A stretch of DNA of 57,944 bases. It comes from an uncultured Pseudomonadales bacterium. GTDB taxonomy: Bacteria > Patescibacteriota > Microgenomatia > UBA1400 > PJMF01. Both the position numbers and the translations under genes were made by a program. The stretch is taken from positions 1-57,944 of the forward strand of contig CAZYNM010000008.1 in NCBI GenBank assembly GCA_964648715.1, written 5' to 3'. Shown piece after piece: positions 39,188 through 57,767 of this stretch. The notes beneath the pieces are model-generated. The model did not search any database. It worked only from the letters and a program-made list of their open reading frames with translations, and was not told the DNA's origin. Each line of letters opens with the position of its first letter. Position 1 is the stretch's first letter.

Positions 39188-40435
39188 CTACTCTCCCAAA
39201 GAAAGTTGTGCAATGACTTGTGAGAGAGAAAGACGGTCTTGTTGGCCTGTCTGCATATTCTTGAGTGATACTGTGCCATTTGCAGCCTCATCTTCACCAA
39301 TTACAACGACGTACGGTATTTTTTTTTGGTCAGCCAGCTTGAACTGCTTACCCAACTTGTCAACAGCAGGGTAGAGTTCAGTCTTGATGCCTGCTTGACG
39401 GAGCTGAGCTGTAGCTGCATATGCTGCTGCTGCACTTTCCTCAGAAAAAACACTCACGAGCACTTGAGTACCCTGGCCTTTTTGTTGTAACAGTCCCAGT
39501 TCTTCAAGCACTTCAACTGTTCTATCAAAGCCCACTGCAAAACCAACTGCGGGCATAGTGTAGCCTGAGAGTTGTTCTATGAGGTTGTCGTATCTACCGC
39601 CACCACCCAGTGATCCACTCGGATATTCGGGTACGCGACTCTCAAAAATGAGACCAGTGTAGTAATCCAAGCCGCGAGCTAGATTGGGGTTTCTTTTGAG
39701 TGCTTCACGTGGCACACCCAACTCAATAGCAATGTCTACAATTTGTTGTAATTGATTTGATATAGGAGCATTTTTAAGTTTGCTTAAAAGTTCATCAGCA
39801 GCAGCTGAAGTAAGGCCTTTCTCTACCAACTCTGCCGCTACTTCCGCAGGGCTCTGTTTGTCTAATTTGTCTATCGTTTGGGTCAAAGACAAAACAGGTG
39901 TTTGGGTAGTAGCAAAGGGGGTAAGAACCGAAAATAGTGTCTCACGATCGTTGATTTCAATCACGACAGATTTGAGACCAAGCTCACGGTACACAGCATA
40001 AAAAACTGCCAACACTTCAGCGTCTGCTTGTGCGCTGGTGCTGCCAAAAATATCACAGTCACTTTGGGTAAATTCGCGATACCGTCCTTTTTGTGGTTTG
40101 TCGGCGCGGAATACATTTTGGATTTGGTAGCGGCGGAAGTAGCGAGGGAGCTCACTTTGATACTGGTAGAGAATACGTGCCGTGGGTACCGTTTGGTCGT
40201 AGCGAAGTGCAATTGCGCGATCACCTCGATCTTGGAATGAATACACAAGCTTGTCTGCTTCGTCGCCATATTTACCCATAAGCAGTTCTGCATACTCCAG
40301 GGTGGGTGTTTCCAGTGGCTCAAAACCAAACCGCTCATATACTGAGCGCATAGTGGCCATCACAAAATCACGCGCACGTTTCTTCTGGGGTAAAAAATCT
40401 CTAAATCCTTTAAGTGTTTGTACTGGTGTTTGCAT
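39188..40435 (-). CDS. hisS: Histidyl-tRNA synthetase
   Basis: KGFRD, LRYDQT, FRADKPQKGRYREF, ARGLDYYTG, GGGRYD. Confidence 0.98.
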   Translation of the reverse strand: MQTPVQTLKGFRDFLPQKKRARDFVMATMRSVYERFGFEPLETPTLEYAELLMGKYGDEADKLVYSFQDRGDRAIALRYDQTVPTARILYQYQSELPRYFRRYQIQNVFRADKPQKGRYREFTQSDCDIFGSTSAQADAEVLAVFYAVYRELGLKSVVIEINDRETLFSVLTPFATTQTPVLSLTQTIDKLDKQSPAEVAAELVEKGLTSAAADELLSKLKNAPISNQLQQIVDIAIELGVPREALKRNPNLARGLDYYTGLIFESRVPEYPSGSLGGGGRYDNLIEQLSGYTMPAVGFAVGFDRTVEVLEELGLLQQKGQGTQVLVSVFSEESAAAAYAATAQLRQAGIKTELYPAVDKLGKQFKLADQKKIPYVVVIGEDEAANGTVSLKNMQTGQQDRLSLSQVIAQLSLGE

Positions 40436-40527: not shown

Positions 40528-40572
40528 TCAGGCGAGAGTATGATGATGTGCTGCAGTACACTTACTAAACAT
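40528..40572 (-). CDS. His leader peptide MFSKCTAAHHHTLA
   Basis: ATG TTT AGT AAG TGT ACT GCA GCA CAT CAT CAT ACT CTC GCC TGA, upstream of hisS. Confidence 0.85.
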   Translation of the reverse strand: MFSKCTAAHHHTLA

Positions 40573-40578
40573 AGGTGT

Positions 40579-40587
40579 AGTATACCA
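40579..40587 (-). promoter_or_regulatory. Extended -10 for hisS leader
   Basis: TGGTATACT, 6 nt before the leader ATG. Confidence 0.75.
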
Positions 40588-46160: not shown

Positions 46161-48248
46161 CTAGAGGCGAAGACCATTTTCTACAGCACTCAGAAGAGGT
46201 GAAAAGTGTCCTCGGAACCAAGCTGAAAATAGGGGGACCTGTGGTTCACCCATTTTTTGTTCTTTGCCTTTGGCACCAAGGCTAGGGTGGGCAGCCCATT
46301 CACTCAGGATACCGGGATGGAGAGCAGCAGCAGCAAGCCCGCCCATGAGAATGCTCCAGTGATCTCCGTATTTTTCCTGAATACGGGATAGTACTTCTGA
46401 AGGTAGTGCGGTGTCGGCAAAACGGGGATTGGCGGGTAAGATTGCTTCTTTGAAGAGGGGTGCTGGTTGGGAACTTCCCAGTTTCCAACAGAGTAGGGGA
46501 GTGATGCATCGTTCACTTGTTTCTGTAGTGGTAAGAGGGTGTGGTTTGAGGTTTTTGAGTCTGTCACCACTGAACTCAAGTTCTGGTGTCAGTTGATAGG
46601 AGCCATCTGAGCCATCAGGGAATCGAACCTGTATTCTATTGTGGGCGGCATCGGCGGCCCTGAGCAGAATGGTGGGAACATCTTGAGGTTCCGTATAATA
46701 CGCTTTTACCTCCAGACCATCTTGCGTTTCAACACACTCTATTTGTGCCCAATGCACGCCTGGCGTTATTGGGGGTTGATGAAGGACAGTGATCAGTTTT
46801 TCTAAAATTGTTGAGCCGGCTACCTGTGCAAGGTGCGCGGTGAATGCCTTGCGTTCAAGACCTTCTCCATACGTTTGCGCATGTGTGTATGTCACTGTGT
46901 TTGCGGGGGTATGGCAAGCTGCTAAATAACTGATAAGTTGAAATAAACTGTACTCGACGCTAATCGACTTTGAATAAGCACTCTGTGCATCATTGAGGGC
47001 AGTCAACCAATCACGCTTTTCATGTTGAAACTCCGACCAGCCGGGTATCTGATCATGCAGCTCGAGTATTTCAGTTTTTTCATCAACCCAATCAGCCTTG
47101 GTGAATGTAGGGATATCCGCTAGATTCCCATAGGAAGTTCCAGTACTGGGTGCTACAGCATGCAGCAGTCTCAACAAACCTACAGAATAGACCGGTGCAA
47201 ATACGAGGAGTCCGTATTGTTCGCCTGTTGAAGTGGTAATAACTTCTACACGAGGAGGGGCCTCTTGTGCCGCTACACGTATGTGTTCTAGGGCAGCGCG
47301 TTGGGAACCTTGGCGAGACAGTTTGAGTGCACTCTGATCTTTTTGCTCTAGAGCACAGGGTACTATGATATGAATGCCGTCTCCCTGGAGGGAAGTGATG
47401 GTCAGGTGAGTAGGGAGAGTGAGCTGTGGTGCACGAACTCGTTCTTGTTCAGTGATGAGTGGTGCCAGGAAAGCCTGGAGTGTTACCTCAAATTGATTGG
47501 GAGTAGTCAACCATTGGCTAAGTCCTGGGGTAACAAATGATTCTTGTTCTAACGTTTCGAGGAACCGTTTCCCTCGGTGTGAAGGCACCGCACCACTATA
47601 GAAAGATGTGTAGGTGTGGTAGGTGTCTCTTCGAGTTGGTTTGCCCAGGATTCCCTGTAATTTTTGGCGGACATCATCAAGGAATGATTGCAGCGTACGC
47701 TTGTAGTACCACTGGTCATTGCCATCAATAGACTGTTTGTTACCACTCATGTCGCAGATCAAAAAATGCATCATATAGTCTGGCATTGATCGTATGTATG
47801 ATTCATTTCTGAAGGTGGTGACAACTTGGCGAAGCACCATGTGTGCAGTAGCGCGATCAATGATACGTTCCAGACCAAGTTCTTGTGGGGTATACATGAG
47901 GGTGAGAAAGCAGAGTAGCTGGCGTTCTTCGGGCTGAGACAGGTGTGAAAAATAGGTTGTTAGTTGGTCATAGTGTGCTTCAAGTGTTTCTTGAGCTGCA
48001 CTAAGCCATGTTGTCACGGCTTGGGTGGTTTCATCAGGCATCTTTGACCAATAGAGATCTTTCTGATGTGCTGCGGTAATCTGTGCTGCAACACGAGCAG
48101 GATTGTAGAGCTGCTGGAGTGCTTCGCGAGAAGCAAAAAATGGTGTGCTTCCTTTATTTATAAATACATTCGTAGCCAACACCGCAGAGTTTATCCATTG
48201 GAATTCTGGCAATGATGTTTGAGGTTCTTGCTCCGGAGATTTCCGCAT
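46161..48248 (-). CDS. Large hypothetical protein, possible APH/kinase-like fold centrally
   Basis: 695-aa ORF; TGCTATACT upstream. Confidence 0.6.
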   Translation of the reverse strand: MRKSPEQEPQTSLPEFQWINSAVLATNVFINKGSTPFFASREALQQLYNPARVAAQITAAHQKDLYWSKMPDETTQAVTTWLSAAQETLEAHYDQLTTYFSHLSQPEERQLLCFLTLMYTPQELGLERIIDRATAHMVLRQVVTTFRNESYIRSMPDYMMHFLICDMSGNKQSIDGNDQWYYKRTLQSFLDDVRQKLQGILGKPTRRDTYHTYTSFYSGAVPSHRGKRFLETLEQESFVTPGLSQWLTTPNQFEVTLQAFLAPLITEQERVRAPQLTLPTHLTITSLQGDGIHIIVPCALEQKDQSALKLSRQGSQRAALEHIRVAAQEAPPRVEVITTSTGEQYGLLVFAPVYSVGLLRLLHAVAPSTGTSYGNLADIPTFTKADWVDEKTEILELHDQIPGWSEFQHEKRDWLTALNDAQSAYSKSISVEYSLFQLISYLAACHTPANTVTYTHAQTYGEGLERKAFTAHLAQVAGSTILEKLITVLHQPPITPGVHWAQIECVETQDGLEVKAYYTEPQDVPTILLRAADAAHNRIQVRFPDGSDGSYQLTPELEFSGDRLKNLKPHPLTTTETSERCITPLLCWKLGSSQPAPLFKEAILPANPRFADTALPSEVLSRIQEKYGDHWSILMGGLAAAALHPGILSEWAAHPSLGAKGKEQKMGEPQVPLFSAWFRGHFSPLLSAVENGLRL

Positions 48249-51875: not shown

Positions 51876-53033
51876 ATGATTCATTCTATTTCAGATTTAG
51901 CACAGATCCCCATTTATCTTACCTATGACGATGTTTTGCTTAAGCCCGGTTTTTCTGACTTCTCACGTCAAGACATAACTACTAAAACACGTCTTTCTAA
52001 AAACGTATTTCTTGATCTTCCTTTGGTCGCAGCGCCAATGGATACCGTCGTTGAGGCACGATTAGCAAGTGCGCTTGCTCAGAAGGGCGGCATTGGCATC
52101 ATGCATCGCAATATGTCTATTGCAGATCAAGCTAGTCAGGTACAACAAGTCAGCAGTCAGAACCTGCAAGTAGGCGCGGCAGTAGGGTACACAGAAGGAT
52201 ATCTTGAGCGAGCATTAGCATTAGTACAAGCTAATGTAACTGTGTTACTCATTGATTCAGCCCATGGTGCATGTACTCCTATGGTAAATGCTATTCGAGA
52301 ACTCAAAAAAAACTATCCACATATTGATATTATTGCTGGAAACGTAGCTACCTATGAGGGCGCACGGGTTCTTATTGAAGCAGGTGCCGATGCAATTCGT
52401 GTAGGGATGGGTCCAGGCGCAATATGCACAACACGCATTATTTCTGGCATGGGGGTGCCACAGCTTTCAGCACTAGTTGATACTGTTCGAGCAGGTAGAG
52501 AGCACAATGTGCCAATTATTGCTGATGGTGGCATCAAGTATTCTGGAGACATGGTTAAAGCATTAGCTGTTGGTGCAGAGACAGTTATGATGGGTAGTTA
52601 CTTTGCTTCTAGTGTCGAGTCACCAGGAGAGTTGGTAACGTTGAAAGCACATGAGCTTCCTGAGAAATTTAAACATTTAATTAAACCAGGACAAAATGAA
52701 TATCACTTTAAAACATATCGTGGCATGGGATCTGAAGCGGCAATGAAGAAGGGAGCCGAAATAAAGTCAGAAGATGAGTTTCACGGTAAGCAGTATGGTA
52801 AGGATCGTGTGCTTGTGGCCGAAGGTGTGGAAGCGTTAGTACCTATCAAGGGTACTGTCGCAGAGCTAGTTGATCAGGCACTTGGTGGAATTAAATCCGG
52901 TATGTATTATGTAGGAGGAAGAACAATTGCAGAGCTTCAAGAGACTGCACAGTTCTTACGTATTACCGATGCTTCTCTTAAGGAAAGTCATCCACACAGC
53001 CTAGTTATTACAAATGCTGGAAAAAATTATTAA
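51876..53033 (+). CDS. guaB: IMP dehydrogenase/GMP reductase family, no CBS domain
   Basis: [34 protein letters not shown]. Confidence 0.9.
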
Positions 53034-53034
53034 T

Positions 53035-54933
53035 ATGCACGCAAACACTTCCAAAGTTGCTATTCTTGATGCCGGTGCTCAGTATGCCAAAGTCATAGAT
53101 CGGCGGGTACGGGAGCTTGGTGTTGAGTCAGTCCTGCTCCCTCTAAATACGCCAGCAGCACAGCTGGCTGGATATGGTGCAATCATCATCTCTGGAGGAC
53201 CACAGAGTGTCTACTCCGTTGATGCACCTGCCTATGATCGTGCCATGCTGCAACTCAAAGTTCCATTTTTAGGTATTTGTTATGGTATGCAGCTCATGGT
53301 TCATGCAAGTGGTGGTGTAGTTGAAAAAAAAGCACGTCGCGAAGATGGACCATGCAATATTTCTGTACAACCGGAAAGTGCGCTTTTTCGCGGACTTATT
53401 CCTGAGCAAATGGTTCTTATGAGCCATGGTGACAGTGTGAGTAAGCTTCCTGAGGGATATGTAGTTACTGCAGAGTCACAAGGAATTATTGCAGCCATTG
53501 AGTGTGCTGCAACTCAACGTTATGGGGTTCAATTTCACCCAGAAGTTGATCTGACTGTAAATGGTAATCGTATCATTGAAAACTTCATATGTAGTATTGC
53601 CGCTCTGCCCAGAACCTACACAGTGCATGATCGGCAAGCAAAGGCACTTGAATACATACAATCAACAGTAGGAACAGGAAAAGTCTTACTTCTAGTAAGT
53701 GGTGGCGTAGACTCAAGTGTATGCGCTGCGCTTATCCGAAAAGCATTGCCTCCAGAACAGATCATTGCTGTCCATATTGACAGTGGCATGATGCGTAAAG
53801 GTGAAAGCGCACAGGTTGCAGCGGCCTTGCGTGCTCAGGGTGTTCCACTCACGGTGATAAATGCTGCAGCAGACTTTTTTGCTGCAACGACTGTCATGCA
53901 TGGGAAAGTGATTGGTCCATTGCATACAGTCTTAGAGCCACAACATAAACGTCAAATTATTGGTGACACGTTTATCAAAGTAGTTGAGAACTACTTGCAG
54001 GAACTCAACTTGGATTTGGACACCGTATTTTTGGCGCAGGGCACGCTACGTCCAGACCTTATTGAAAGTGCATCCACACACATAAGTAGCACAGCCAGTG
54101 TTATCAAGACACATCATAATGACACTGAAATTGTCAGAGCATTGCGTGCGCGAGGACGCGTCATTGAGCCACTTGCAGAGTATCACAAAGATGAGGTCAG
54201 GGTATTAGGTGAAGAGTTGGGACTACCTCATGAAATGGTGTGGAGACAACCATTTCCTGGCCCTGGTTTGGGTATTAGAATCTTGTGTGCCACTGAGCCC
54301 TATCTTACTTCAGAATACTCAGCTATCCTTAAGAATTTACAAGTGCACGTCCCTAAGAAATATGCTGTTACTGTACTTCCGGTACGGACTGTGGGTGTAC
54401 AAGGAGATGGTAGAACATATAGCTATGTTGCAGCACTTAGCTGTGAGCGTGATGCACTGAGCTTTGCACCAGTAGAGTGGGAAGAGATTATTAATTTAGC
54501 TCGAGAACTGCCTAAGTATGTGCATCAAATTAATAGAGTTGTCTGGATGTTCGGAGCACCAGTGTCAGTGTCAGTTACCAGTATTACGCCAACGCTCCTC
54601 ACTCCTGATACCGTTGCTCAACTACAAATACCAGATGCTATTGTTTCTCAAGCAATCATACGTCACAATCTGGGCACTGTTTTGAGTCAAGTACCGGTGA
54701 TACTTGTGCCTGTGGACTGTGAAGCACCGAATCATCAAGGTGGACGTTGTATTACTATTCGTACATTTATTACCAATGACTTTATGACTGGGATACCTGC
54801 AACACCAGGTAAAGAATTGCCACTTGAAGCACTCAAAGAGATGGTAACAGAGGTGGAAGCTCAGACACCAGGAATATCTCGAGTATTATACGATCTTACG
54901 TCAAAGCCACCTGGCACTACAGAATGGGAGTAG
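53035..54933 (+). CDS. guaA: GMP synthase (long form)
   Basis: LDAGAQY, GICYG, QFHPE, SGGVDS, PFPGPGL, KPPGTTEWE. Confidence 0.97.
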   Translation: MHANTSKVAILDAGAQYAKVIDRRVRELGVESVLLPLNTPAAQLAGYGAIIISGGPQSVYSVDAPAYDRAMLQLKVPFLGICYGMQLMVHASGGVVEKKARREDGPCNISVQPESALFRGLIPEQMVLMSHGDSVSKLPEGYVVTAESQGIIAAIECAATQRYGVQFHPEVDLTVNGNRIIENFICSIAALPRTYTVHDRQAKALEYIQSTVGTGKVLLLVSGGVDSSVCAALIRKALPPEQIIAVHIDSGMMRKGESAQVAAALRAQGVPLTVINAAADFFAATTVMHGKVIGPLHTVLEPQHKRQIIGDTFIKVVENYLQELNLDLDTVFLAQGTLRPDLIESASTHISSTASVIKTHHNDTEIVRALRARGRVIEPLAEYHKDEVRVLGEELGLPHEMVWRQPFPGPGLGIRILCATEPYLTSEYSAILKNLQVHVPKKYAVTVLPVRTVGVQGDGRTYSYVAALSCERDALSFAPVEWEEIINLARELPKYVHQINRVVWMFGAPVSVSVTSITPTLLTPDTVAQLQIPDAIVSQAIIRHNLGTVLSQVPVILVPVDCEAPNHQGGRCITIRTFITNDFMTGIPATPGKELPLEALKEMVTEVEAQTPGISRVLYDLTSKPPGTTEWE

Positions 54934-54973
54934 TCCAAAAAAGGTGTAGGTATATCCCACTAGAAAAAATCAT

Positions 54974-55996
54974 ATGACAGCACATCTACCAGTTAGTTCA
55001 GAAAATATTTCTTTTTTGGAAAGTGTTGAACTTACAGAACTACATGCTCACCTGGGGGCGGCACTTTCGGCGACCGAATTGTGGGAGATGGCGCATGACC
55101 AGGGTTTGAAACTACCAACAAAAGATTATCGGCAGTTTGAACGATTAGTGAATGTTTATGAGGCCAAGGATTTTGAAGAGCAATTAAAGATATTTGATTT
55201 GACGGAAAAAATACAATCATCACCAGAGGCTATGTTCCATGCACTGCAGCATGTGATTTCTGAAGCATACAGAAAAAATAATATTACAACTCTGGAGCTA
55301 CGATTTAATCCCATTTTTCGTTGCCAAGACGGTGAACGTGATATGGATCATATTTTAGTATTTGCACTTCAAGGCATGGAGCGAGCACAGCTCAAGTATG
55401 GTGTGCGGGCCGGACTTATTTTATGTATGGATCGTCGGCTATCATTAGAAAAAAATACTGCCATCGTAAAAAAAGCAATTAAGTACAAAGACCGCGGTGT
55501 GGTAGGCATTGATTTGGCTGGTCCTGTTCTTCGCAGCGAACAAAGTCAAACATTCCGACCACGTGATATTGCACACTTGGCGGCAGAAGCACGAGCGGCA
55601 GGATTAGGAGTAACATTTCATACTGGCGAAGTAACAGGTGTCGATGAGATGTGGGAGGTAGTCAAAGAAGTACAACCAGACAGAATAGGGCATGGTATTG
55701 CCTGTGTAAAAGATGAATCACTCATGGTAGAGCTTCGTGAGAAAAATATTGTTCTTGAATTGTGTCCAAGCTCGAACATCCACACTAAAGTACTGCAAGA
55801 TTATGATGCGGTAAGAGATGTGTTTGTCCAGATTAAGAAACATGGTGTTCCCTACACAATTAATACTGACTGGCCAGCTACTTTAGGCCTTTCGCTCCGA
55901 CAGCAAATAGCACAATTATTGGAGCATAATGTAATTAACAAAGAAGATGTGTTGCAGGCTAATGCAGTTGCCGTGAATGCATCGTTCATAGAATAA
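54974..55996 (+). CDS. add: Adenosine deaminase family
   Basis: ELHAHL, HTGE, RIGHG, LCPSSN, NTD. Confidence 0.88.
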   Translation: MTAHLPVSSENISFLESVELTELHAHLGAALSATELWEMAHDQGLKLPTKDYRQFERLVNVYEAKDFEEQLKIFDLTEKIQSSPEAMFHALQHVISEAYRKNNITTLELRFNPIFRCQDGERDMDHILVFALQGMERAQLKYGVRAGLILCMDRRLSLEKNTAIVKKAIKYKDRGVVGIDLAGPVLRSEQSQTFRPRDIAHLAAEARAAGLGVTFHTGEVTGVDEMWEVVKEVQPDRIGHGIACVKDESLMVELREKNIVLELCPSSNIHTKVLQDYDAVRDVFVQIKKHGVPYTINTDWPATLGLSLRQQIAQLLEHNVINKEDVLQANAVAVNASFIE

Positions 55997-56005
55997 CCGC
56001 TCCTG

Positions 56006-56014
56006 TGGTATAGT
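56006..56014 (+). promoter_or_regulatory. Extended -10 for glyA leader
   Basis: TGGTATAGT, 6 nt before an ATG. Confidence 0.7.
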
Positions 56015-56020
56015 AGATGC

Positions 56021-56071
56021 ATGATTAAGTCACCCAACGCGTTCCAGCTTTCGTTCTCCACGTTGTTCTAG
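56021..56071 (+). CDS. Putative leader peptide MIKSPNAFQLSFSTLF
   Basis: ATG at leaderless spacing; 3' end forms the left arm of an SD-sequestering hairpin. Confidence 0.55.
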   Translation: MIKSPNAFQLSFSTLF

Positions 56072-56111
56072 ACATGAAGTATTTCATGTAGTAGAACAAT
56101 CCAGAGGAGAA
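56054..56111 (+). promoter_or_regulatory. SD-sequestering hairpin upstream of glyA
   Basis: TTCTCC/GGAGAA, TTGTTCTA/TAGAACAA and ACATGAA/TTCATGT nested stems. Confidence 0.65.
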
Positions 56112-56117
56112 TTATTC

Positions 56118-57431
56118 ATGTCAGATAGTATTTTTTCAATAATACGTAAAGAAGAACAGCGTCAGATTAATAAAATTGGGCTGATTCCTTCAGAAAATAA
56201 CACATCACCTGCAGTCTCAGCAGTGTTGTCATCATGCCTTTCTAATAAATATGCAGAAGGCTATCCAGGCAGACGTTACTATGAAGGCAACCAATTTGTT
56301 GATGAAGTAGAAATAGCAGCTATTGAGCGCGTCAAGAAATTGTTTGGGGTCCCGTACGTTAACGTCCAGCCGTACTCTGGCAGTCCAGCAAATTTTGCTA
56401 TTTATTTTGCCTTAATGAAACCAGGTGAAACACTCATGGGCCTCAAGTTGTCTATGGGTGGTCATTTAACCCATGGGCACCCTGATGTGACAGCATCAGG
56501 TCGTTTTTACACCTCGGTCCAGTATGGTGTACGGGAAGACGCTCGTATTGACTTTGACCAGGTAGAAGAGCTGGCAAAAAAACACAAACCAAAAGTGATT
56601 GTGGCAGGAAACACGGCTTATCCTTTTGAACTAGATTTCAAAAAGTTCCGTAAAATTGCTGATGCTGTGGGTGCGTGGTTAGTTGCTGACATCTCTCACG
56701 TAACTGGCTTGGTGATTGGGGGAGAGCATGTGAGTCCTGTGCCGTATGCTGATGTCATCATGTCAACTACCCACAAGACATTCCGTGGCCCACGTGGCGC
56801 CATGATTCTGGTCACTGAACGTGGACTTAAAAAAGATCCAGATCTGGGAAAGAAAATTGATGCTGCTATTATACCGGGCTTACAAGGTGGGCCACACAAT
56901 GCCACCAGTGCCGGTATTGCTATTGCAGCAGCAGAAGCCGCAACACCCAAGTTTAAGAAGTACGTACACCAGATTCGGCTCAATGCCGATGCACTGGCAG
57001 ATGAACTGAAGAAGCAAGGACTTACATTGGTAGGTGATGGTACAGAGACCCACCTTATGGTGGTTGATCTCACGCCGTTTGGCATTGGGCTTGGTACCCA
57101 AGTAGCATTTGCCCTTGATGTGGCTGGTATCTATGCCAACAGAAATACCGTGCCTACAGAAAAAGGTTCGCCATTTTATCCATCAGGATTACGTGTGGGT
57201 ACACCTCTGGTGACAACCCGTGGCATGAAAGAAAAAGAAATGCGTGCTATTGCACGATGGATAGCGCAAGTTGCCAAACATGTGGCACAAGAGCAGCTTC
57301 CTACAGATGCCAAAGAGCGTCAAGCATTTTTGAAAGCATTCCGGCTCAAAGCCGCTAAAGACAAAGTGCTTTTGCAGATTGCCCGTGAAGTTAAAGCGAT
57401 GGCGAGTACATTTCCTCTCTTTAAGGGGTAG
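56118..57431 (+). CDS. glyA: Serine hydroxymethyltransferase
   Basis: LIPSEN, NKYAEGYPG.RYY, GGHLTHG, TTHKTFRGPRG. Confidence 0.98.
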   Translation: MSDSIFSIIRKEEQRQINKIGLIPSENNTSPAVSAVLSSCLSNKYAEGYPGRRYYEGNQFVDEVEIAAIERVKKLFGVPYVNVQPYSGSPANFAIYFALMKPGETLMGLKLSMGGHLTHGHPDVTASGRFYTSVQYGVREDARIDFDQVEELAKKHKPKVIVAGNTAYPFELDFKKFRKIADAVGAWLVADISHVTGLVIGGEHVSPVPYADVIMSTTHKTFRGPRGAMILVTERGLKKDPDLGKKIDAAIIPGLQGGPHNATSAGIAIAAAEAATPKFKKYVHQIRLNADALADELKKQGLTLVGDGTETHLMVVDLTPFGIGLGTQVAFALDVAGIYANRNTVPTEKGSPFYPSGLRVGTPLVTTRGMKEKEMRAIARWIAQVAKHVAQEQLPTDAKERQAFLKAFRLKAAKDKVLLQIAREVKAMASTFPLFKG

Positions 57432-57446
57432 AGCGCACTGGGTGCA

Positions 57447-57767
57447 TTACGGCAGCGAGCCTTTTGAGTCTAACTCGACTGTAGCTCCAATACCTTCAAG
57501 CACTTGTCGTGCTAGTCTTAAGCAGTATGCGGCTCTAGTTCCAACAAGTACAACAGTGTCACCAGCGTCAACATTTTCTTTTAATGTGGGAAAGCCAGTA
57601 CTGGGTGGTTCTTCAATGTGGATAACATTTTCTGGCGCGAAGGTTTCCGTTAATTGATCTATTCTTTGCAATGCTGCAGTAATGTGCTGTCTAGGCAAGG
57701 GTGGCTTATCGCTTTGGCCCCAGCTTTCCATATAAGATCTATGAACTATGGCAAGCTTTTCACTCAT
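57447..57767 (-). CDS. Small protein resembling the isochorismatase/cysteine hydrolase fold
   Basis: TVVLVGTRAAYCL...GATV; TGTTATACT upstream. Confidence 0.5.
   Translation of the reverse strand: MSEKLAIVHRSYMESWGQSDKPPLPRQHITAALQRIDQLTETFAPENVIHIEEPPSTGFPTLKENVDAGDTVVLVGTRAAYCLRLARQVLEGIGATVELDSKGSLP

Follow-up and report, generated by a model that had tools for sequence, protein, structure and literature searches.

The 57,944-nucleotide (nt) contig CAZYNM010000008.1 (assembly GCA_964648715.1), called the window in its whole length, contains glyA, the gene of serine hydroxymethyltransferase (SHMT), preceded by a short upstream open reading frame (uORF). With roughly even chances, in our estimate, the glyA leader of the window is a ribosome-operated attenuator built on this conserved leaderless frame of 16 codons, in which pausing of the ribosome at serine scarcity turns SHMT synthesis on. 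Comparison of orthologous loci indicates that the reading frame is the conserved part and probably acts as a peptide or codon sensor, while the read-out structure behind it varies and is not evident in some lineages.

The leader reading frame and its distribution

The gap between glyA and its upstream neighbour add measures 121 nt and holds the uORF behind an extended -10 element (Table 1). Six nt (agatgc) stand between this element and the ATG at 56021. With the usual distance of 7 nt from the -10 element to the start, transcription would begin on the A of this ATG, and thus the uORF would be leaderless; judged from this spacing, the 5' end of the transcript probably coincides with the ATG or lies a few nt from it. 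The -35-like hexamer TTCATA, with a spacer of 18 nt to TATAGT and 9/12 consensus matches, is weak and is not kept in the close relative L161 (glyA 97% identical). A mini-ORF of four codons in another frame (ATG CAT GAT TAA, 56017-56028) overlaps the start of the uORF; it begins 4 nt 5' of the predicted transcription start and is probably not on the mRNA. The uORF shares its frame with the stop codon of add (55994-96), and no start codon occurs in between.

The uORF statistics refer to 21 unique lineages (orthologues) and the counts of initiation signals to 20 unique uORFs; all ATG triplets in the same loci served as background for -10-like boxes. A TAnnnT box 5-9 nt before the ATG was detected for 15/20 uORFs, compared with 9.2% of all ATGs (p = 3e-12), and the TGn extension for 9/20 versus 1.3% in the background. 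The 15 uORFs with this box mostly have no Shine-Dalgarno sequence (SD). For two of the five uORFs without a -10-like box (L005 and L008) a well-placed SD was found instead. Hence, the reading frame is kept while the mode of initiation switches between leaderless and SD-led, which is strong evidence for its translation. We consider the uORF almost certainly leaderless and translated.

The family follows the consensus M-I-K-[S/A/T]-x3-[F/Y/W/H]-[Q/H/L]-x2-[F/Y/L]-S-[T/S]-x1-3-stop with a length of 15-17 codons. In the window the peptide carries serine at positions 4, 11 and 13. Examples from the relatives are MIKSSNAFQLCFSTLF (L161), MIKAHFTFHTSFSTSL (L162), MIKTRASFQQSFSTSR (L165), MIKSRLSFHSPFSTAC (L001), MIKSALLFMVSFSTL (L002), MIKSIVSWQIHYSTS (L007), MRKSTLTFQTAFSSL (L003) and MHKSSLPHQLAYSTL (L086). 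Across codons 1-14 no indel was observed, and the distance from Met1 to Ser13 is constant in the 21 lineages, though the spacer between uORF and glyA varies from 46 to 156 nt. The summed column entropy of the codon positions 1, 2 and 3 amounted to 13.2, 11.4 and 18.2, and 31% of the pairwise codon differences were synonymous in frame, compared with 6% and 4% in the other frames, which are interrupted by stops in 19/21 and 18/21 sequences. Residues are conserved with wobbling third positions at 1-3, 8, 9 and 12-14. Position 14 is threonine or serine in 21/21 uORFs, again with a free third position, and position 12 is F, Y or L in 20/21. In L002, L008 and L010 Phe-Ser-Thr is retained with the codons UUU UCA ACA, and the anti-SD sequence is gone. 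Residues past Thr14 and the stop codon vary. None of the 308 residues is aspartate, glutamate or glycine, and the G content of the uORF RNA is 10.5%.

A reading of the conserved 5' part at the RNA level only was tried and rejected. The sequence TGATTAAATCA forms a near-palindrome over the transcription start and could be taken for an operator. The palindrome is broken by AAG/AAA and TCA/TCG/TCC/TCT/GCN/ACT variation, which keeps Lys-Ser/Ala/Thr, so that coding constraint fits better.

For the distribution of the uORF, 172 glyA loci were gathered from genome and metagenome collections and by contig look-ups. The glyA genes of several loci labelled Pseudomonadales or Gammaproteobacteria group with Patescibacteria, and the closest named relatives of the window glyA belong to Candidatus Woesebacteria, Pacebacteria and Patescibacteria. 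The uORF was present in 23 of the 32 Patescibacteria loci with a glyA at least 69% identical and in none of the 140 loci with a glyA at 63% or less. It always lies on the strand of glyA, 46-156 nt upstream, whatever the gene in front of it (add in the window, DUF488 in L161, divergent genes in L007, L081 and L157, and others). A search of both strands of the window and the 172 loci (1.25 Mb) by regular expression and nhmmer profile revealed no uORF copy away from glyA.

In the glyA tree the loci without uORF are nested among carriers. Probably the common ancestor of the clade already possessed the uORF, and several losses followed. In L006 (2930-3000) the uORF and the spacer, about 105 nt, are cleanly deleted. 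This locus still has the promoter found in its sisters L157 and L081 (TGATAATATgta), which runs straight into the glyA SD, the shared promoter TGATAATAT adjoining it; the similar strings ATGATTAAAT and AGGATTTAAATG are possible end points of the deletion. As the promoter of L006 would drive glyA directly after the loss of the uORF, the uORF promoter would be the promoter of glyA as well. In the window only 46 nt (hairpin and SD) without a terminator lie between the two frames, and uORF and glyA are probably co-transcribed.

Two further loci contain probable decayed copies of the uORF. In L083 (1205-1294) an extended -10 element is followed after 7 nt by ATG ATC TAG, so that a stop replaces the invariant Lys3 codon, and L004 (~1060-1342) retains TCAAAAC...AATTATCCCACC without a start codon. 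In L003 (~2940) and L082 (~1320) glyA apparently has an N-terminal extension of 20-25 residues rich in lysine, proline and threonine (MPKTKPLAPKAKHATAPTQ... and MQTKTKKFVNEGQPETLSTNPHQ...). Thus, the true distance between uORF and glyA would be shorter in these loci than the homology match suggests.

Hairpin at the glyA start and the proposed switch

In the window the hairpin of 60 nt has a predicted free energy of -23.8 kcal/mol (z = -6.28), a stability that 200 shuffled sequences all failed to reach; for the full leader of 115 nt z = -3.2 was obtained. Codons 12-17 of the uORF form the 5' side, where UUCUCC pairs with GGAGAA of the glyA SD. The probability of the SD being unpaired in the free leader was calculated as 0.01.

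From uORF codon 12 to the ATG of glyA the window and L161 are identical in 64/64 nt (56054-56117 and 2437-2500, respectively). The glyA genes of both share 85% DNA identity and 60% at third codon positions, and with changes at the overall rate of glyA the 64/64 identity would have a probability of ~3e-5, or of ~7e-15 if the rate of third positions is applied. Six changes distinguish the first 33 nt of the uORF (three synonymous, P5S, and S11C by two changes). Similarity starts exactly at the extended -10 element, and the sequences are unalignable 5' of it. Hairpin and SD appear to be under strong constraint in the lineage of the window.

The identity with L161 covers loops and bulges and goes beyond what helix stability alone needs. 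The stop context CTAGAC (region 56069-56099 of the window) is also kept in L162, L163, L165 and L072 (glyA 82-84% identical). In the same subclade GTAGTA[CG]AAC is kept about 16-20 nt past CTAGAC, with differing pairing partners. A second promoter within the hairpin was considered, as TGTAGTAGA resembles the uORF promoter TATAGTAGA. This candidate was dismissed, being without the essential A2 or T6 of a -10 box.

The uORF-hairpin leader fits no cis-regulatory family of Rfam (ZTP, THF, glycine riboswitch, T-box and leader families). At the gathering threshold only two tRNAs were found in the whole window and no matches in 19 orthologous loci. With permissive E-values the best hit in 55900-56250 was a chance miRNA hairpin with 17 bits against a cut-off of 74.

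The effect of a translating ribosome was modelled by folding the leader with the ribosome-covered stretch held single-stranded; the ribosome-binding site (RBS) was defined as -14 to +6 from the glyA ATG. Opening of the RBS costs 8.8 kcal/mol in the free leader of the window and 7.8-9.1 kcal/mol with the A site at codons 1-7. Once the A site has reached codon 8, and from there up to the stop, only 5.3-6.2 kcal/mol are needed. For L007 the probability of an unpaired SD rises from 0.04 to 0.8 at the last codons, and for L072 from 0.06 to 0.5-0.8 at codons 7-17. Since masking opens the RBS from codon 8 onwards, any ribosome in the distal part of the uORF would expose the glyA SD, and its dwell time would set the output.

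Based on these calculations the following switch is proposed. Transcription would begin at or within a couple of nt of the A of ATG 56021, and the uORF peptide would be translated by 70S ribosomes. At rest, the hairpin of -24 kcal/mol would take up codons 12-17 together with the stop codon, UUCUCC (Phe12-Ser13) would be paired to the glyA SD, and initiation would be blocked. On reaching the distal half of the uORF, a ribosome would melt the outer helix and free the SD for a time set by its dwell on the invariant Phe-Ser-Thr or on the stop codon. The likeliest cause of a long dwell would be slow decoding of the rare UCC-13, together with UCG-11 and ACG-14, at scarce Ser-tRNA; the conserved nascent peptide possibly reinforces the pause. 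Such pausing would turn SHMT on.

Structures downstream of the uORF were also compared among the relatives. In L007 an outer helix UUCUCC:GGAGAA, located 6 nt past the stop, reaches the SD, and L072 possesses an SD-sequestering helix. The outer helix CUUUCU:AGAAAG of L166, with its 5' arm in codons 12-13, reaches the SD too and is weak (probability of an unpaired SD in free RNA 0.62). L002, L003 and L165 carry small hairpins with T-runs, and the 5' arm of these overlaps the end of the uORF from codon 13 to the stop; clear terminators occur slightly further downstream in L008 and L086. In total, terminator-like sites are enriched in the uORF spacers (8/20) compared with control upstream regions (18/137).

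All descriptive statements on the sequence in the initial annotation of this DNA are correct, and its interpretation is supported in part. It had described a leaderless uORF with three serine codons, two of them among the last six, and with the same spacing from -10 element to ATG as in a leader before hisS (6 nt at both), whose end provides the anti-SD arm in three nested stems. Its proposal that a ribosome finishing the uORF opens the SD is in line with the folding. Its statement that an early stall leaves the SD shut agrees with the folding for codons 1-7, but only one of the serine codons, Ser4, is early.

Table 1 Features of the glyA leader and related elements in the window
Feature	Position	Strand	Remarks
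Leader ORF MIKSPNAFQLSFSTLF*, 16 codons + TAG	56021..56071	+	stop TAG 56069-71
Codons 12-14, Phe-Ser-Thr (UUC UCC ACG)	56054..56062	+	UUCUCC is the anti-SD segment
Extended -10 TGgTATAGT	56006..56014	+	TG 56006-07, TATAGT 56009-14
-35-like hexamer TTCATA	55985..55990	+	inside 3' end of add
Three-tier hairpin	56053..56112	+	predicted by folding; identity with L161
Outer helix GUUCUCC:GGAGAAU	56053-59 : 56106-12		predicted to sequester glyA SD
Middle helix GUUGUUCUA:UAGAACAAU	56062-70 : 56092-100		contains uORF stop codon
Inner helix ACAUGAA:UUCAUGU	56072-78 : 56083-89		loop GUAU
glyA SD GGAG within GAGGAGAA	56106..56109	+	8 nt before ATG
glyA, SHMT, 437 amino acids (PF00464 SHMT)	56118..57431	+	proposed target of the switch
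add, adenosine deaminase (Pfam)	ends 55996		upstream neighbour of glyA
hisS leaderless His attenuator (putative)	40607-40436	-	three tandem His codons, terminator

Serine signal and rival explanations

Serine accounts for 21% of the uORF residues; at variable positions its share is 17% compared with 5.4% in the background, and threonine is not enriched there. Ser13 is present in 21/21 uORFs and encoded by UCC in 15/21, though UCC represents 10% of the background serine codons. Ser4 prefers the common UCA, in contrast to UCC at Ser13 (Fisher p = 0.001), and all serine codons at positions 4 and 13 are UCN. In Bacillus subtilis sinR, TCN serine codons are reported to act as serine sensor, the UCN codons being the starvation-sensitive ones (PMC3862929). 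In the glyA leader Ser11 and Ser13 are located in or next to the anti-SD arm, so a starved ribosome there would hold the SD open. With only Ser4 in an early position and stalling at Ser11 or Ser13 opening the SD, a shortage of serine would more likely turn glyA on. In the relatives with terminators the response would go the same way, since the 5' arm of the terminator is covered by any ribosome positioned between codon 13 and the stop.

Conservation of M-I-K, the aromatic residue at position 8, Q9, F12 and the fixed distance of 11 residues to Ser-Thr appears to go beyond what serine codons alone would require. The conservation at the peptide level, the fixed distance and the lack of aspartate, glutamate and glycine point to a role of the nascent chain, as in arrest peptides, or to extra constraints at the RNA level. 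We favour ribosome pausing on Phe-Ser-Thr as the switch, with shortage of Ser-tRNA as the likeliest trigger and the peptide as a possible co-determinant.

Several observations weigh against pausing at serine scarcity as the basis of the switch. The serine codons are scattered without a tandem run; Ser4 is present in 81% of the uORFs and replaced by alanine or threonine in 4/21, and Ser11 is found in 10/21 (48%) and is cysteine in L161. Even so, the refuting condition named in the initial annotation, a lack of conservation of the serine codons, did not come true, as Ser13 is invariant and serine is enriched in general. The preference for UCC at codon 13 may result from selection on pairing with the SD and not on slow decoding. 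If SHMT mainly consumes serine for the folate pool (glyA and folD are kept in the Candidate Phyla Radiation, CPR; PMC11974145), induction by serine shortage would be counter-intuitive. The modelled gain is only about 3 kcal/mol, because the SD region is predicted to pair weakly with glyA codons 3-7 when the anti-SD sequence is masked, which accounts for the residual cost of opening. Conservation of the stems upstream of CPR glyA, which the initial annotation had named as a check, is complete between the window and L161 but does not extend to the family. Sequestration of the SD as a family-wide feature was rejected, since the median cost of RBS opening was 6.4 kcal/mol for 19 uORF leaders and 5.8 kcal/mol for 137 loci without uORF (p = 0.27). 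A stable hairpin at the uORF stop was rejected as well on grounds of energy, since random positions gave hairpins just as stable (p = 0.77). According to these models the SD-sequestering hairpin is lineage-specific. No convincing structure was seen in L082, L012 and L157, and in L002, L010 and L005 -10-like boxes occur between terminator and glyA, so that the uORF of these three loci could be a separate transcription unit. Finally, the transcription start, in vivo translation of the uORF, pausing, its trigger and the direction of the response are inferred computationally, from sequence comparison and folding.

The initial annotation had assumed the opposite direction: with sufficient serine the uORF is finished and the SD open, and at serine shortage an early stall leaves it shut. 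This order of events would suit SHMT as a serine consumer feeding the folate pool of CPR. A ribosome stalled at Ser4 leaves the hairpin intact (~9 kcal/mol, codons 1-7) and would occlude the leaderless start too, and in L165, L002 and L003, where the 5' arm of the terminator overlaps the last codons, a lagging ribosome would permit termination. However, the invariant serine is Ser13 within the anti-SD arm and not the replaceable Ser4, two of the three serine codons of the window sit where a stalled ribosome keeps the SD open, and the conservation of the other residues is left unexplained. The direction is probably reversed, and we consider activation by serine sufficiency quite unlikely. The conservation of these other residues would be accounted for by a regulatory arrest peptide, a chain of 15-17 residues lying wholly in the exit tunnel, which would stall the ribosome at Phe-Ser-Thr or at the stop codon, possibly only with a bound small molecule (serine, glycine or folate). 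The stall, and not a shortage of tRNA, would then open the SD or block the terminator. Conservation at the amino acid level with free third positions, the lack of indels between Met1 and Ser13 despite the variable spacer, the retention of Phe-Ser-Thr in L002, L008 and L010, where the codons give no anti-SD sequence, and the absence of aspartate, glutamate and glycine are in favour of it; systems of this type typically combine a conserved sensor with an expression platform that varies. We know of no stalling motif resembling MIKS...FST, which counts against it, as does the variation of the residues past Thr14 and of the stop codon. The N-terminal conservation could also reflect leaderless initiation, the pyrimidine-rich codons could be a constraint on the RNA, and the support comes from sequence data. 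Altogether an arrest peptide is a less probable explanation, yet the main rival. Taken further, MIK[S]-x3-Ar-Q-x2-F-S-T (Ar, aromatic residue) might represent a new class of metabolite-sensing arrest peptides with interchangeable read-outs, which sets SHMT synthesis. The chain of 15 residues would stay in the tunnel with (formyl-)Met-Ile-Lys at a fixed distance from the peptidyl-transferase centre and would report the one-carbon, serine or glycine status, conceivably even its own N-terminal formylation. We offer this whole proposal as a tentative one, with a small but real chance of being correct.

Other explanations do without a sensing peptide or codon. Translation of the uORF could constitutively unfold the glyA RBS, or allow re-initiation by 70S ribosomes, so that the output tracks leaderless initiation. 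The leaderless start is conserved, any ribosome past codon 8 opens the helix, and the middle helix contains the uORF stop at a distance of 46 nt from the glyA ATG. Such coupling without sensing is nevertheless unlikely: purifying selection on the peptide, the invariant Ser13-Thr14 and the enrichment of serine would be unexplained, as would the retention of the uORF where no SD-sequestering helix is predicted, and several lineages lost the uORF without a replacement. Selection at the peptide level would also be expected of a free micropeptide of 15-17 residues with a function of its own, e.g. on SHMT or one-carbon metabolism, which is merely syntenic with glyA. A promoter of its own precedes the uORF, 8/20 relatives have terminator-like hairpins immediately behind it, and possible -10 boxes are located between terminator and glyA in L002, L005 and L010. 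In the window, however, there is neither a terminator nor room for a second promoter, and the last six codons are part of the hairpin at the glyA RBS. The deletion in L006, after which the uORF promoter serves glyA, the lack of uORFs away from glyA in 1.25 Mb and the layout of leaderless ORF plus terminator, which matches the hisS attenuator, argue against a free micropeptide as well, and we regard it as very unlikely. In the last explanation the hairpin itself is the operative element, a binding site for a protein or ligand (e.g. for autoregulation by an RNA-binding enzyme), and the uORF is secondary. The 64/64 identity including loops and bulges, above the need of helix stability, and the motifs CTAGAC and GTAGTA[CG]AAC, kept in L162, L165 and L072 despite differing pairing partners, would fit such a site. 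Against it, the hairpin has no Rfam match and is absent outside the subclade, where the uORF persists, and its strong conservation is derived from one close relative without covariation. This makes a binding site highly improbable.

The hisS leader, gene context and known systems

A second leaderless leader is predicted before hisS on the minus strand of the window. The -10 element TGgTATACT ends at 40579 and is followed after 6 nt by an ATG at 40572, and the ORF MFSKCTAAHHHTLA* extends to 40528. Located 3' of it are a helix GGGATGGT...ACCATCCC, a terminator ATCCCGC-acatag-GCGGGAT with T-run (40493-40474), an SD and the hisS ATG at 40435. The presence of this histidine leader suggests that the organism uses leaderless leader peptides.

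In the window guaB, guaA and add precede glyA (51876-57431), a context of purine salvage and one-carbon metabolism. In the relatives L161-L172, Methyltransf_21, AP_endonuc_2 and often folD (THF_DHG_CYH) are found downstream of glyA. Two ORFs of the window are without Pfam match, one of 106 amino acids (57447-57767, minus strand), which is convergent with the 3' end of glyA, and one of 695 amino acids (46161-48248, minus strand).

To our knowledge, almost no gene regulation has been described in CPR/Patescibacteria, which are uncultured and genome-reduced. A conserved leaderless leader peptide before glyA would therefore be a concrete and testable cis-regulatory device in this group. SHMT, one of the few metabolic enzymes kept in CPR, is central to the metabolism that they retain, and these symbionts rely on their hosts for amino acids: retention of glyA, folD and folA is reported to be common, with glyA in 81% of 4581 genomes, and amino acid biosynthesis is commonly missing (PMC11974145). 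The leader offers an entry to the question which signal (serine, glycine, folate or translation state) controls one-carbon metabolism in host-dependent symbionts. Judged from the glyA and hisS leaders together, sensing by ribosomes on leaderless mRNAs would not be restricted to Actinobacteria. With a peptide under selection and a variable RNA read-out, the glyA leader also qualifies as a promising candidate for a new arrest peptide. In a literature search no description of a glyA leader peptide, of a glyA leader with serine codons or of such elements in CPR was found.

In architecture the nearest known systems are the translation attenuators of cat, cmlA and ermC, in which codons of the leader ORF form the 5' arm of a hairpin hiding the SD, a ribosome pausing at one defined codon of the leader opens this hairpin and the peptide sequence matters. 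These leaders are induced by ribosome-targeting antibiotics, SD-led and control resistance genes. In contrast, the uORF before glyA is predicted to be leaderless and the target gene is metabolic. TnaC and SpeFL are arrest peptides sensing tryptophan and ornithine, respectively; they act by Rho-dependent termination, and their ligand-dependent stalling has been demonstrated. They share with the glyA leader a short uORF before a gene of amino acid metabolism, a peptide under selection and, as proposed here, ribosome occupancy near the stop codon that decides on expression. The glyA peptide is shorter and unrelated in sequence. As in the his, trp, thr, leu and pheST attenuators, a short leader ORF contains codons for an amino acid related to the pathway, and terminator-like hairpins right after the uORF, as in L002, L003, L008, L165 and L086, resemble these classical systems further. 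Unlike them, the leader of the window has no terminator, which implies a translational read-out, no tandem regulatory codons and no match to an Rfam leader family.

The proposed use of UCN serine codons as slow point at low serine is shared with sinR (PMC3862929), where the codons lie inside the regulated gene without uORF or RNA switch. Nearest in logic are the leaderless poly-Cys short ORFs of mycobacteria, for which Canestrari et al. (2020; 10.1101/834739) describe that a stalled ribosome blocks an RBS-sequestering structure. In both cases a leaderless short ORF is the first cistron of an mRNA for amino acid metabolism. The mycobacterial ORFs carry tandem cysteine codons in an otherwise variable peptide, whereas in the glyA uORF the serine codons are scattered, 8/14 positions are conserved and the length is fixed. 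Moreover, the glyA uORF belongs to CPR, its target is SHMT, and some of its relatives have terminators. The glyA leader would be a leader-peptide attenuator on a leaderless mRNA, set apart by its scattered codons, its selected peptide, the target SHMT and the CPR host.

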